Source of the DNA: Escherichia coli
GTDB lineage: Bacteria; Pseudomonadota; Gammaproteobacteria; Enterobacterales; Enterobacteriaceae
Strand: one strand, 5' to 3'
Length of the DNA: 64,000 nucleotides
Assembly: GCF_003334355.1 (NCBI RefSeq)
Contig: NZ_QOWP01000010.1
In this document: one piece after another, positions 18,005 through 27,887 of the stretch
How the letters are laid out: every line of letters begins with the position of its first letter
How positions within the stretch are numbered: the stretch's first letter is position 1
Notes under the pieces: generated by a model
What the model was told of the DNA's origin: nothing
What the model saw: the letters and a program-made list of their open reading frames with translations, nothing else
Databases searched by the model: none
Translations under genes and position numbers: made by a program

Positions 18005-19123
18005 ATGAATAACGAGGAAACATTTTACCAGGCCATGCGGCGTCAGGGCGTTACCCGGCGCAGCTTTCTCAAATATTGTAGTCTGGCTGCCACGTCGCTG
18101 GGATTAGGCGCGGGAATGGCACCAAAGATTGCCTGGGCGCTGGAGAACAAACCGCGCATTCCGGTGGTATGGATCCACGGTCTGGAATGCACCTGCTGTA
18201 CCGAATCTTTTATCCGCTCCGCTCACCCACTGGCGAAGGACGTCATCCTTTCCCTTATTTCTCTCGATTACGACGATACTTTGATGGCTGCCGCCGGAAA
18301 CCAGGCGGAAGAAGTCTTTGAAGACATCATCACGCAATACAATGGCAAATATATCCTCGCAGTAGAAGGCAATCCGCCGCTGGGCGAGCAGGGGATGTTC
18401 TGTATCAGCAGCGGTCGACCGTTTATTGAGAAACTCAAACGTGCCGCTGCCGGAGCCAGCGCGATTATCGCCTGGGGAACCTGCGCGTCCTGGGGCTGCG
18501 TGCAGGCCGCGCGGCCCAATCCGACGCAGGCAACGCCTATCGACAAAGTCATCACCGACAAACCCATTATCAAAGTACCTGGCTGCCCGCCGATCCCGGA
18601 TGTGATGAGCGCCATCATTACTTACATGGTGACCTTTGATCGCTTGCCAGATGTCGACAGAATGGGCCGTCCACTGATGTTTTATGGTCAGCGTATCCAT
18701 GATAAATGCTATCGCCGCGCTCACTTCGACGCCGGAGAGTTCGTCCAGAGTTGGGATGATGACGCTGCCCGCAAAGGTTACTGCCTGTACAAAATGGGCT
18801 GCAAAGGGCCTACCACCTATAACGCCTGTTCCTCCACACGCTGGAATGATGGCGTTTCTTTTCCAATCCAGTCTGGTCACGGCTGCCTGGGCTGTGCGGA
18901 AAATGGTTTCTGGGATCGCGGTTCGTTCTACAGCCGCGTGGTCGATATTCCGCAAATGGGTACTCATTCCACCGCCGATACCGTCGGTTTAACCGCGCTT
19001 GGCGTGGTGGCAGCGGCTGTTGGTGTGCACGCAGTCGCCAGCGCCGTTGACCAGCGCAGACGTCATAACCAGCAACCTACAGAAACCGAACATCAGCCAG
19101 GCAATGAGGATAAACAGGCATGA
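18005..19123 (+). CDS. hyaA: Hydrogenase 1 small subunit HyaA (372 aa), Tat signal peptide
   Basis: ATG at 18005 ([29 protein letters not shown]...) with twin-arginine motif; FeS-cluster Cys ligands; track ORF starts 9 codons earlier. Confidence 0.94.
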
Positions 19124-20913
19124 GCACTCAGTACGAAACTCAGGGATACACCATCAATAATGCCGGACGCCGCCTGGTGGTCGACCCGATTACGCGCATC
19201 GAAGGCCACATGCGCTGCGAAGTGAATATTAACGATCAGAATGTGATCACCAATGCCGTCTCCTGCGGCACCATGTTTCGCGGGCTGGAGATCATCCTAC
19301 AAGGGCGCGACCCGCGCGATGCGTGGGCGTTCGTTGAACGTATCTGCGGCGTCTGTACTGGCGTACACGCCCTGGCTTCGGTTTACGCCATCGAAGATGC
19401 TATCGGTATTAAAGTGCCGGACAACGCCAATATCATCCGCAACATTATGCTGGCAACGCTCTGGTGCCACGATCATCTGGTGCACTTCTATCAGCTTGCC
19501 GGGATGGACTGGATCGATGTGTTAGATGCGCTGAAAGCCGACCCGCGGAAAACCTCCGAACTGGCGCAAAGTCTCTCCTCTTGGCCGAAATCATCCCCTG
19601 GCTATTTCTTCGACGTACAAAACCGCCTGAAAAAATTTGTTGAAGGCGGGCAGTTGGGGATCTTCCGCAATGGCTACTGGGGGCACCCGCAGTACAAACT
19701 GCCGCCAGAAGCTAACCTGATGGGCTTTGCCCACTATCTCGAAGCTCTCGATTTCCAGCGTGAAATTGTCAAAATCCACGCGGTCTTTGGCGGTAAAAAC
19801 CCGCATCCAAACTGGATTGTCGGCGGGATGCCTTGCGCCATCAACATTGACGAAAGCGGCGCGGTCGGGGCAGTCAATATGGAACGCCTGAACCTGGTGC
19901 AGTCAATTATCACCCGCACGGCGGACTTCATTAACAACGTGATGATCCCCGACGCCTTAGCCATCGGTCAGTTCAACAAACCGTGGAGCGAAATCGGCAC
20001 TGGTCTTTCTGATAAATGCGTTCTCAGCTACGGCGCATTCCCGGATATTGCCAACGACTTTGGCGAGAAAAGTCTGCTGATGCCTGGCGGCGCGGTGATT
20101 AACGGCGACTTCAACAATGTGCTGCCAGTGGATTTGGTTGATCCGCAGCAGGTGCAGGAGTTTGTCGACCACGCCTGGTATCGATATCCCAACGATCAGG
20201 TCGGGCGTCATCCGTTCGATGGCATCACCGACCCGTGGTACAACCCCGGCGATGTCAAAGGCAGCGATACCAACATTCAGCAGCTGAATGAACAGGAACG
20301 CTACTCGTGGATCAAAGCGCCACGCTGGCGCGGTAACGCGATGGAAGTGGGGCCGCTGGCGCGCACGTTAATCGCTTATCACAAAGGCGATGCTGCGACC
20401 GTTGAGTCGGTCGATCGCATGATGTCGGCGTTGAACCTGCCGCTTTCCGGTATCCAGTCAACGTTAGGCCGCATTTTGTGCCGCGCGCACGAAGCGCAGT
20501 GGGCCGCAGGTAAGTTGCAGTATTTCTTCGACAAGCTGATGACCAACCTGAAAAACGGCAATCTCGCCACTGCTTCCACGGAAAAATGGGAACCTGCAAC
20601 CTGGCCGACAGAGTGCCGTGGCGTCGGCTTTACCGAAGCGCCGCGCGGGGCGTTAGGCCACTGGGCCGCCATTCGCGATGGCAAGATTGATCTCTACCAG
20701 TGCGTGGTACCGACCACCTGGAACGCCAGCCCGCGCGATCCCAAAGGGCAGATTGGCGCTTATGAAGCGGCGCTGATGAACACCAAAATGGCGATCCCCG
20801 AGCAACCGCTGGAGATCCTGCGTACTCTGCACAGCTTTGATCCGTGCCTCGCCTGTTCAACACACGTGCTGGGCGACAACGGTAGCGAGCTGATCTCCGT
20901 GCAGGTGCGTTAA
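19120..20913 (+). CDS. hyaB: Hydrogenase 1 [NiFe] large subunit HyaB (597 aa)
   Basis: Full-length ORF with N-terminal RxCGxC and C-terminal DPCxxC Ni-binding motifs; ATGA overlap with hyaA. Confidence 0.95.
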
Positions 20914-23605: not shown

Positions 23606-25150
23606 ATGTGGGATGTCATTGATTTATCGCGCTGGCAGTTTGCTCTGACCGCGCTGTATCACTTTTTATTTGTACCCCTTACCCTGGGGCTGATTTTTTT
23701 GCTGGCTATCATGGAAACCATTTACGTGGTCACCGGCAAAACAATCTACCGCGATATGACGCGCTTCTGGGGTAAGCTCTTCGGTATCAATTTTGCTCTT
23801 GGCGTGGCTACCGGCCTGACCATGGAGTTTCAGTTTGGTACTAACTGGTCATTCTATTCCAACTATGTGGGCGATATTTTTGGCGCACCACTGGCGATGG
23901 AAGCATTAATGGCCTTCTTCCTCGAATCCACCTTTGTCGGGCTGTTCTTCTTCGGCTGGCAACGGCTGAATAAATACCAGCACCTGCTGGTGACGTGGCT
24001 GGTGGCGTTCGGTTCAAATCTCTCTGCGTTGTGGATATTGAATGCCAACGGTTGGATGCAATACCCGACCGGTGCGCATTTTGATATCGACACCCTGCGT
24101 ATGGAGATGACCAGCTTCAGCGAGCTGGTCTTTAATCCGGTCAGCCAGGTGAAATTTGTGCACACCGTAATGGCGGGCTACGTGACCGGGGCCATGTTTA
24201 TTATGGCGATCAGCGCCTGGTATTTACTGCGCGGACGGGAGCGCGATGTCGCATTACGCTCGTTTGCCATCGGTTCCGTCTTCGGTACTCTGGCGATTAT
24301 CGGTACCCTGCAACTCGGAGACAGTTCTGCGTATGAAGTCGCGCAAGTACAACCGGTAAAACTGGCGGCGATGGAAGGGGAGTGGCAAACGGAGCCTGCA
24401 CCTGCACCGTTCCATGTGGTTGCCTGGCCGGAACAGGATCAAGAGCGTAACGCCTTTGCCCTCAAAATTCCCGCGCTGCTAGGGATCCTCGCCACTCACT
24501 CATTAGATAAACCCGTGCCGGGTCTGAAGAATTTGATGGCTGAAACCTACCCACGCTTGCAACGCGGACGTATGGCCTGGCTGTTAATGCAGGAAATATC
24601 GCAAGGCAATCGTGAGCCGCATGTGTTGCAGGCATTCCGGGAACTGGAAGGTGACCTGGGCTACGGCATGTTGCTCTCCCGCTATGCGCCGGATATGAAT
24701 CATGTCACAGCCGCACAGTACCAGGCGGCGATGCGTGGCGCGATACCTCAGGTTGCGCCGGTATTCTGGAGTTTCCGCATCATGGTGGGCTGTGGTTCCC
24801 TGCTGCTACTGGTGATGCTGATTGCGCTTGTCCAGACGCTGCGTGGCAAAATCGACCAGCATCGCTGGGTGCTGAAAATGGCGCTCTGGAGTTTGCCCTT
24901 GCCGTGGATTGCGATTGAAGCCGGGTGGTTTATGACCGAGTTTGGTCGTCAGCCGTGGGCGATACAGGACATCTTACCGACATACTCCGCGCACTCCGCT
25001 TTAACCACAGGACAACTGGCTTTCTCACTGATCATGATCGTAGGGCTTTACACCCTGTTCTTAATCGCCGAAGTCTACCTGATGCAGAAATATGCCCGTC
25101 TGGGGCCGAGCGCGATGCAGAGTGAACAACCGACGCAGCAACAGGGGTAA
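23606..25150 (+). CDS. appC: Cytochrome bd-II oxidase subunit I AppC (514 aa)
   Basis: ATG at 23606 ([28 protein letters not shown]...); CydA-like membrane protein. Confidence 0.94.
23998..24005 (+). other. Chi site (GCTGGTGG)
   Basis: Exact octamer inside appC; a second copy lies at 25272-25279 inside appB. Confidence 0.6.
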
Positions 25151-25161
25151 AGGAGAAAATC

Positions 25162-26298
25162 ATGTTTGATTATGAAACATTGCGCTTCATCTGGTGGCTG
25201 CTGATTGGCGTGATCCTGGTGGTCTTTATGATCTCCGACGGATTTGACATGGGGATCGGCTGTCTGCTGCCGCTGGTGGCGCGTAATGATGATGAACGCC
25301 GGATAGTGATAAACAGCGTTGGTGCACACTGGGAAGGCAACCAGGTCTGGTTGATCCTCGCTGGTGGGGCATTATTTGCCGCCTGGCCCAGAGTGTATGC
25401 AGCGGCGTTTTCCGGCTTTTATGTGGCGATGATCCTGGTGCTGTGCTCACTGTTCTTCCGCCCGCTGGCCTTTGATTATCGCGGAAAAATCGCCGATGCA
25501 CGCTGGCGTAAAATGTGGGACGCCGGTCTGGTCATCGGCAGTCTGGTGCCGCCGGTAGTCTTCGGTATCGCCTTCGGCAACTTGTTGCTCGGCGTGCCGT
25601 TTGCCTTCACACCGCAATTACGCGTGGAGTATCTCGGCAGCTTCTGGCAACTGCTGACGCCATTCCCTTTATTGTGCGGATTGCTCAGCCTTGGGATGGT
25701 GATTTTGCAAGGTGGCGTCTGGTTACAACTGAAAACTGTTGGTGTGATTCATCTGCGTTCACAGCTGGCCACCAAACGCGCTGCACTGTTGGTGATGCTG
25801 TGCTTTTTGCTGGCGGGTTACTGGCTGTGGGTCGGTATTGATGGCTTTGTACTGCTCGCCCAGGATGCTAACGGTCCTTCCAATCCGTTAATGAAACTGG
25901 TGGCAGTGCTACCTGGTGCCTGGATGAATAATTTCGTCGAATCGCCCGTTTTGTGGATCTTCCCGCTGCTGGGGTTCTTCTGCCCATTGCTGACGGTGAT
26001 GGCGATTTATCGTGGTCGCCCGGGTTGGGGATTTTTAATGGCGTCATTGATGCAATTTGGCGTGATTTTCACGGCAGGCATCACGCTGTTCCCCTTTGTC
26101 ATGCCGTCAAGTGTGAGTCCAATCTCCAGCCTGACGTTGTGGGACAGTACTTCCAGTCAGCTGACGCTGAGCATTATGTTGGTAATCGTGCTGATATTTT
26201 TGCCCATTGTGTTGCTCTACACTCTCTGGAGCTACTACAAAATGTGGGGACGCATGACAACAGAAACTCTCCGCCGTAACGAAAACGAGTTGTACTAA
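25162..26298 (+). CDS. appB: Cytochrome bd-II oxidase subunit II AppB (378 aa)
   Basis: Full-length CydB-like membrane ORF 12 bp after appC. Confidence 0.94.
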
Positions 26299-26310
26299 GG
26301 AGCAGGAACA

Positions 26311-26403
26311 ATGTGGTATTTACTTTGGTTCGTCGGCATTTTGTTGATGTGTTCGCTCTCCACCCTTGTGTTGGTATGGCTGGACCCGCGTCTGAAAAGT
26401 TAA
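26311..26403 (+). CDS. appX: Cytochrome bd-II small subunit AppX (30 aa)
   Basis: ATG at 26311 after AGGAGCAGG; translation MWYLLWFVGILLMCSLSTLVLVWLDPRLKS (single transmembrane helix); absent from the ORF track because it is under 60 codons. Confidence 0.8.
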   Translation: MWYLLWFVGILLMCSLSTLVLVWLDPRLKS

Positions 26404-26408
26404 CGAAC

Positions 26409-26447
26409 GTAGGCCTGATGCGGCGCATTAGCATCGCATCAGGCAAT
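26409..26447. repeat. REP (repetitive extragenic palindromic) element
   Basis: gtaggcctgatgcggcgcattagcatcgcatcaggca: imperfect palindrome of the GCCTGATGCG REP family between appX and appA. Confidence 0.7.
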
Positions 26448-26482
26448 CAATAATGTCAGATATGAAAAGCGGAAACATATCG

Positions 26483-27781
26483 ATGAAAGCGATCTTAATC
26501 CCATTTTTATCTCTTCTGATTCCGTTAACCCCGCAATCTGCATTCGCTCAGAGTGAGCCGGAGCTGAAGCTGGAAAGTGTGGTGATTGTCAGTCGTCATG
26601 GTGTGCGTGCTCCAACCAAGGCCACGCAACTGATGCAGGATGTCACCCCAGACGCATGGCCAACCTGGCCAGTAAAACTGGGTTGGCTGACACCGCGCGG
26701 TGGTGAGCTAATCGCCTATCTCGGACATTACCAACGCCAGCGTCTGGTAGCCGACGGATTGCTGGCGAAAAAGGGCTGCCCGCAGTCTGGTCAGGTCGCG
26801 ATTATTGCTGATGTCGACGAGCGTACCCGTAAAACAGGCGAAGCCTTCGCCGCCGGGCTGGCACCTGACTGTGCAATAACCGTACATACCCAGGCAGATA
26901 CGTCCAGTCCCGATCCGTTATTTAATCCTCTAAAAACTGGCGTTTGCCAACTGGATAACGCGAACGTGACTGACGCGATCCTCAGCAGGGCAGGAGGGTC
27001 AATTGCTGACTTTACCGGGCATCGGCAAACGGCGTTTCGCGAACTGGAACGGGTGCTTAATTTTCCGCAATCAAACTTGTGCCTTAAACGTGAGAAACAG
27101 GACGAAAGCTGTTCATTAACGCAGGCATTACCATCGGAACTCAAGGTGAGCGCCGACAATGTCTCATTAACCGGTGCGGTAAGCCTCGCATCAATGCTGA
27201 CGGAGATATTTCTCCTGCAACAAGCACAGGGAATGCCGGAGCCGGGGTGGGGAAGGATCACCGATTCACACCAGTGGAACACCTTGCTAAGTTTGCATAA
27301 CGCGCAATTTTATTTGCTACAACGCACGCCAGAGGTTGCCCGCAGCCGCGCCACCCCGTTATTAGATTTGATCAAGACAGCGTTGACGCCCCATCCACCG
27401 CAAAAACAGGCGTATGGTGTGACATTACCCACTTCAGTGCTGTTTATCGCCGGACACGATACTAATCTGGCAAATCTCGGCGGCGCACTGGAGCTCAACT
27501 GGACGCTTCCCGGTCAGCCGGATAACACGCCGCCAGGTGGTGAACTGGTGTTTGAACGCTGGCGTCGGCTAAGCGATAACAGCCAGTGGATTCAGGTTTC
27601 GCTGGTCTTCCAGACTTTACAGCAGATGCGTGATAAAACGCCGCTGTCATTAAATACGCCGCCCGGAGAGGTGAAACTGACCCTGGCAGGATGTGAAGAG
27701 CGAAATGCGCAGGGCATGTGTTCGTTGGCAGGTTTTACGCAAATCGTGAATGAAGCACGCATACCGGCGTGCAGTTTGTAA
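26483..27781 (+). CDS. appA: Periplasmic acid phosphatase/phytase AppA (432 aa)
   Basis: ATG at 26483 (MKAILIPFLSLLIPLTPQSAFA signal peptide) and histidine acid phosphatase RHGVRAP motif. Confidence 0.94.
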   Translation: MKAILIPFLSLLIPLTPQSAFAQSEPELKLESVVIVSRHGVRAPTKATQLMQDVTPDAWPTWPVKLGWLTPRGGELIAYLGHYQRQRLVADGLLAKKGCPQSGQVAIIADVDERTRKTGEAFAAGLAPDCAITVHTQADTSSPDPLFNPLKTGVCQLDNANVTDAILSRAGGSIADFTGHRQTAFRELERVLNFPQSNLCLKREKQDESCSLTQALPSELKVSADNVSLTGAVSLASMLTEIFLLQQAQGMPEPGWGRITDSHQWNTLLSLHNAQFYLLQRTPEVARSRATPLLDLIKTALTPHPPQKQAYGVTLPTSVLFIAGHDTNLANLGGALELNWTLPGQPDNTPPGGELVFERWRRLSDNSQWIQVSLVFQTLQQMRDKTPLSLNTPPGEVKLTLAGCEERNAQGMCSLAGFTQIVNEARIPACSL

Positions 27782-27850: not shown

Positions 27851-27887
27851 GTAGACCGGAAAAGGCGTTCACGCCGCATCCGGCCAC
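27851..27887. repeat. REP element
   Basis: gtagaccggaaaaggcgttcacgccgcatccggccac, REP-family palindrome. Confidence 0.7.

Follow-up and report, generated by a model that had tools for sequence, protein, structure and literature searches.

Identification of a 30-Codon Open Reading Frame between appB and appA of Escherichia coli as appX, the Gene for the Small Subunit of Cytochrome bd-II Oxidase

Introduction

The segment of the Escherichia coli chromosome with the gene order pqiB ... hyaABCDEF-appCB-X-appA-etk ... putA raises the question of whether the short interval between appB and appA carries a gene of its own and, if so, what that gene encodes. The window analyzed here is the whole stretch of 64,000 nucleotides that contains this segment. 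An initial annotation had placed an ATG-started gene of 30 codons, appX, in the interval and had described its product as the small accessory subunit of cytochrome bd-II oxidase. The same annotation had noted that the gene is missing from the ORF track of the window. The analysis presented here leaves very little doubt that the frame at 26311-26403 (+) is appX, also named cbdX and previously yccB, which stands third in the appCBXA operon of E. coli and encodes a subunit of cytochrome bd-II.

Reading Frame and Translation Start of appX

The reading frame of appX and its putative translation signal are located as follows.

26311..26403, + strand: appX (= cbdX, formerly yccB), identified from NF011333, PF08173, PDB 7OSE_C/7OY2_X, and RefSeq WP_000270305.1
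26297..26302, + strand: Shine-Dalgarno (SD) sequence AAGGAG of appX, read from the sequence, with GAGGAG at the equivalent position in the metagenomic contig L008

In the ORF listing the frame consists of an ATG start codon, 30 sense codons, and a TAA stop codon, and its translation is MWYLLWFVGILLMCSLSTLVLVWLDPRLKS. The initial annotation was exact in both the coordinates and the peptide. The gene lies directly downstream of appB, on the same strand and within the appCB operon. The TAA stop codon of appB is found at 26296-26298, and the ATG of appX follows after a gap of 12 nt. The ribosome-binding site that had been proposed for the gene is present as AAGGAG, which shares bases with the appB stop codon and is separated from the ATG by a spacer of 8 nt. 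Previously, the SD sequence of appX was given as UAAGGAG with an aligned spacing of 15 (PMC9841429). The peptide of 30 residues carries an N-terminal MWY motif and a single hydrophobic helix. A strongly hydrophobic stretch spans residues 1-24 (GRAVY value of 2.08), and the peptide ends in the charged tail DPRLKS.

A frame as short as this one might have arisen by chance in the appB-appA spacer and remain untranslated. Short ORFs are abundant in this region, where the 7 kb around appX are overlapped by 106 ORFs of at least 20 amino acids, and the 30-codon length of appX alone is therefore not above chance. The significance of appX derives from the match to a family model (E = 4e-23), the identity to a solved protein chain, and the conservation in a divergent operon, each of which is presented below.

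Identity of the appX Product

Comparison with the cydX/appX small-protein families had been suggested as a check on the assignment. All 30 residues of AppX align with the complete profile (positions 1-30 of 30) of the NCBIfam equivalog NF011333 (CbdX) with a score of 80.8 bits (E = 4.2e-23), which is above the curated equivalog cut-off of 57 bits. A full-length match of this kind to a curated equivalog argues against a chance ORF. Residues 1-25 also match positions 1-25 of the 27 in the Pfam model PF08173 (YbgT_YccB), with 45.3 bits and E = 8.7e-12. CydX was considered as the identity of the appX product and was rejected because AppX scores 18.9 bits with the CydX model TIGR02106, below the cut-off of 31.6, and the upstream genes are of the bd-II type. 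AppX is instead a paralogue of CydX, and the distant relation to CydX of bd-I (PDB 6RKO_X) is detected with E = 0.009.

Chain C of PDB entry 7OSE is 100% identical to AppX; the chain is named AppX, with the description “cytochrome bd-II ubiquinol oxidase subunit AppX”. Chain X of 7OY2 carries the same name, and its first 30 residues are likewise 100% identical to AppX. A single transmembrane (TM) helix is observed for the peptide in both structures, in agreement with the hydrophobic single-helix peptide described at the outset. Cytochrome bd-II was previously purified from the expression of appCBX, and AppX was found at approximately 4 kDa and confirmed by mass spectrometry (PMC8585947, Nat Commun 2021). 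The detection of the protein that the initial annotation had called for is thus already available in the literature, by mass spectrometry and cryo-EM and for an identical sequence (PMC8585947). The published finding of AppX in purified bd-II already refutes the proposal of an untranslated chance ORF (PMC8585947), against which the identity to a chain resolved by cryo-EM in two structures also speaks.

RefSeq assigns exactly positions 26311-26403 to cbdX, “cytochrome bd-II oxidase subunit CbdX”, with the protein accession WP_000270305.1. This accession is common to all five of the E. coli genomes inspected, four of which were picked to span the identity range. The 801-bp stretch around appX is present in 5,421 of 5,426 complete E. 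coli genomes, and at least 80% of the stretch is present in 5,398 of the 5,426. A cbdX feature is annotated in all 11 of the full-length matches to this stretch that were listed among the complete E. coli genomes. The description of the product as a small accessory subunit of cytochrome bd-II is therefore supported by the RefSeq entry, by NF011333, by the identity to the 7OSE and 7OY2 chains, and by the published purification (PMC8585947). Translation of appX in this strain would be expected from its sequence identity to the gene of K-12/BW25113.

The appCBXA Operon and Neighboring Genes

The protein-coding genes that flank appX in the operon are the following.

23606..25150, + strand: appC, cytochrome bd-II subunit I, 514 aa, the binding partner of AppX (NF011609, 1200 bits against a cut-off of 1025; same coordinates in RefSeq)
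25162..26298, + strand: appB, cytochrome bd-II subunit II, 378 aa (NF011602, 832.8 bits against a cut-off of 681; RefSeq)
26483..27781, + strand: appA, periplasmic acid phosphatase/phytase (NF007552, 846 bits against a cut-off of 585; RefSeq start at 26483)

The AppC and AppB proteins pass the bd-II models NF011609 and NF011602, respectively, but not the bd-I models NF011677 and NF011579. The last gene of the operon is appA, and its function is unrelated to the oxidase. The longest ORF of appA begins at the ATG at 26453 (442 aa), a further in-frame ATG occurs at 26462, and the RefSeq start is at 26483 (432 aa). With the RefSeq start, the signal peptide would be MKAILIPFLSLLIPLTPQSAFA. In the long form of appA, the match to the NCBIfam model starts only at residue 9, which is consistent with the downstream start.

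The 801 bp around appX are 100% identical to the corresponding sequence of strain 08-00022 and 98.6-98.8% identical to that of K-12 derivatives. Over the whole window the identity to strain 08-00022 in the BLAST comparison is 99.1%, with small indels. The hyaB gene is intact in the window (19120-20913, 597 codons) and is annotated as a frameshifted pseudogene in strain 08-00022, the closest complete genome found. The window therefore derives from a strain that is closely related to 08-00022 but distinct from it.

Conservation of appX

Variation within the species was analyzed with four E. coli strains that are 1.1-3.0% different from the window (11-30 of 1,001 surrounding bases). The appX gene differs at 0-2 bases in these strains, and both changes are synonymous (CGT>CGA at Arg27 and CTG>TTG at Leu28). 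The 12-nt gap between appB and appX is unchanged in three of the four divergent strains and has a single change in the fourth. The appX-appA spacer differs by up to 6.3% among the four strains and is the most variable stretch compared. The AppX peptide is identical in five diverse E. coli genomes. The restriction of the changes in appX to synonymous positions, against up to 6.3% in the spacer, indicates at the level of the sequence that appX is under purifying selection within E. coli.

A protein search for AppX among 1.84 billion representatives at 50% clustering returned 12 matches, and representatives at this level of clustering are a poor guide to the spread of a protein as short as AppX. 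Most of the 12 are variants close to the E. coli protein with a frameshift or a truncation, and are probably assembly errors. The sole apparent AppX orthologues from other taxa among these matches are P0003 (73% identical) and P0007 (74% identical, 29 aa), which pass NF011333 with 62.0 and 64.6 bits, respectively.

Orthologue P0003 is encoded on the metagenomic contigs L008 and L009, immediately after the genes for a 514-aa subunit I and a 378-aa subunit II. The nucleotide identities of L008/L009 to the window are 80% for appC and 73% for appB. The 12-nt gap and the ATG are retained in L008, together with GAGGAG at the SD position of appX. There are 12 synonymous and 8 nonsynonymous codon differences between the appX genes of L008 and the window, and the 27 base differences are distributed as 17 in third positions and 10 in first or second positions. 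The initial annotation had set conservation in other app operons as the test that could overturn its reading, and appX withstands it: the gene is kept in L008 with the same gap, an SD sequence, and a synonymous bias, and both P0003 and P0007 pass NF011333. Synonymous-biased changes and a fixed SD sequence and spacing in an operon of 73-80% DNA identity are not what a chance ORF would be expected to exhibit, and the probability that appX is such an ORF is vanishingly small.

In the L008 operon, kch is found upstream and appA is absent downstream. The occurrence of appCBX without appA links the small gene to the appCB oxidase genes and not to appA. The divergent enterobacterial appCBX operon of L008 occupies positions 1-5506 (ena:ERZ27280411:k141_537106), where it adjoins kch and has neither hya genes nor appA beside it. 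The L008 AppX is 43 aa in total, with a hydrophilic C-terminal extension of 13 residues.

Overlapping Reading Frames

Two other ORFs overlap appX in the window, and one of these might be the functional frame in place of appX. The first is a 46-codon ORF in the +3 frame at 26313-26453, which begins with the GUG contained in the AUGUG start of appX, and the second is a 90-codon antisense ORF at 26174-26446. The start of appX, AUGUG, belongs to a class that sometimes permits initiation in two frames, and dual initiation has been demonstrated in some AUGUG genes (PMC9841429). In the same work appX is listed with the SD sequence UAAGGAG and no ambiguity is predicted for it; dual-frame initiation is predicted for appC (PMC9841429). 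An AUGUG start is present in both appC (23606-23610) and appX (26311-26315).

Two stop codons interrupt the +3 frame in L008 within the 90 nt common to both operons. In the same contig, the antisense ORF is reduced to 44 codons with different ends, and its start in the window lies inside a REP element that L008 does not have. It is thus highly improbable that either of these ORFs is the functional frame. Ribosomes that initiate at GUG 26313 in addition to the ATG of appX would produce a 46-residue out-of-frame peptide that continues across the REP element as far as 26453, so that the spacer would yield two overlapping products; the odds of such a second product are slim in the extreme. The frame of appX at 26311-26403 is retained as the coding frame.

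REP Elements

The spacer between appX and appA contains a palindromic element outside the gene.

26413..26444, + strand: hairpin of the REP type, GCCTGATGCGGCGC...GCATCGCATCAGGC, located between appX and appA (folding energy -24 kcal/mol, z = -4.9 versus shuffles)

Other copies of the REP motif in the window are found at 27871-27884 (after appA), at 47522-47563 (47522 and 47550), and at 53520-53533. No RNA gene was found at the REP elements in the Rfam search, which gave only weak, sub-threshold matches to the REP-derived naRNA4. No terminator was detected between appX and appA in the terminator scan, so that the REP hairpin does not qualify as a canonical intrinsic terminator, and no T run follows it. 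Because the T run is absent, the hairpin is more likely a stabilizing element or decay barrier than a terminator, and it probably acts as an mRNA 3'-stabilizing structure or as a barrier to decay.

Approximately 140 bp with REP-like palindromes, at 53411-53552 between ymdF and rutG, are not collinear with strain 08-00022. This difference looks like copy-number variation of a REP cluster between strains.

Small Genes and the ORF Track

The default minimum of the ORF listing is 60 aa, which would hide appX, and a length-threshold effect is a plausible explanation for the absence of appX from the ORF track. The initial annotation had named gnsA as another gene below 60 codons, and it is indeed one, at 57 aa. 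The coordinates of rmf, gnsA, and ymdF were placed by an exact sequence search of the window.

1581-1748: rmf, 55 aa
37159-37332, + strand: gnsA, 57 aa, with a GTG start in RefSeq
53163-53336: ymdF, 57 aa

Just upstream of gnsA, ymcE and ymcF (62 aa, with an annotated non-ATG start) overlap each other. The window contains no sequence that exactly matches the ymcE protein of strain 08-00022.

A minimum of 60 codons conceals real functional genes, of which at least four are annotated in the 64-kb window (rmf, appX, gnsA, and ymdF). The omission of appX is a gap in the 60-codon-minimum track alone and not in the public annotation. The gene and its product are already known from RefSeq, from curated family models, and from two cryo-EM structures, and biologically nothing about them is new. 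Absence from an ORF track is not equivalent to novelty, and short ORFs need to be checked beforehand against RefSeq, NCBIfam, and the PDB.

Role of AppX in the Cytochrome bd-II Complex

In the cryo-EM structure of bd-II, AppX is a single 30-residue TM helix that touches TM helices 1, 5, and 6 of AppC and adjoins the four-helix bundle that binds hemes b595 and d (PMC8585947). AppX is also the main contact between two heterotrimers in one cryo-EM preparation, and the existence of the dimer in the membrane was left open (PMC8585947). The placement of AppX agrees in both independent structures and is superimposable with that of CydX (PMC8951039). AppX was described as a paralogue of CydX in a study that made use of a ΔappX strain, and no hidden phenotypes of cydX point mutants emerged on deletion of appX (PMC6005532). 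The role documented for AppX in the literature retrieved is a structural one.

From these data a pathway for AppX may be proposed. The appX gene would be translated from its own AAGGAG SD sequence within the appCBXA transcript. Since this SD sequence overlaps the appB stop codon on the same transcript, the gene arrangement suggests the co-expression of AppX with AppC and AppB. The AppX helix would then insert in the membrane and pack on TM helices 1, 5, and 6 of AppC, in the position taken from the published structures. In the assembled quinol:O2 oxidoreductase bd-II, AppX may stabilize the bundle of hemes b595 and d, as the authors of the structural work inferred by analogy with CydX. On the basis of the same paralogue, AppX may be needed for the stability or activity of bd-II. 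AppX may also be able to substitute for CydX.

Comparison with Known Small Subunits

The closest known system is AppX/CbdX (YccB) of the E. coli bd-II oxidase. All 30 of the 30 residues are the same, and the gene has the same position 12 nt after appB in the same hyaABCDEF-appCBXA operon. There is no difference at the protein level, and the window is from a non-K-12 strain.

CydX (YbgT) of the bd-I oxidase, represented by chain X of 6RKO and by TIGR02106, shares with AppX the PF08173 family, the N-terminal MWY motif, and the single TM helix. The gene for CydX also directly follows the gene for subunit II, and the two proteins occupy superimposable positions on subunit I. CydX differs from AppX in its length of 37 aa and in its longer acidic tail. 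Leu residues 4, 5, 16, and 19 of AppX form the bd-II dimer contact, whereas other residues are found at these sites in CydX (PMC8585947). A fourth subunit, CydH/CydY, is present in bd-I and absent from bd-II (PMC8585947, PMC8951039). CydS of the cytochrome bd from Geobacillus thermodenitrificans is similar to AppX as a single-helix accessory subunit of approximately 4 kDa alongside subunit I (PMC8951039). In contrast to AppX, CydS leans toward TM6 of CydA, and its displacement reaches a maximum of 4-5 Å on the periplasmic side.
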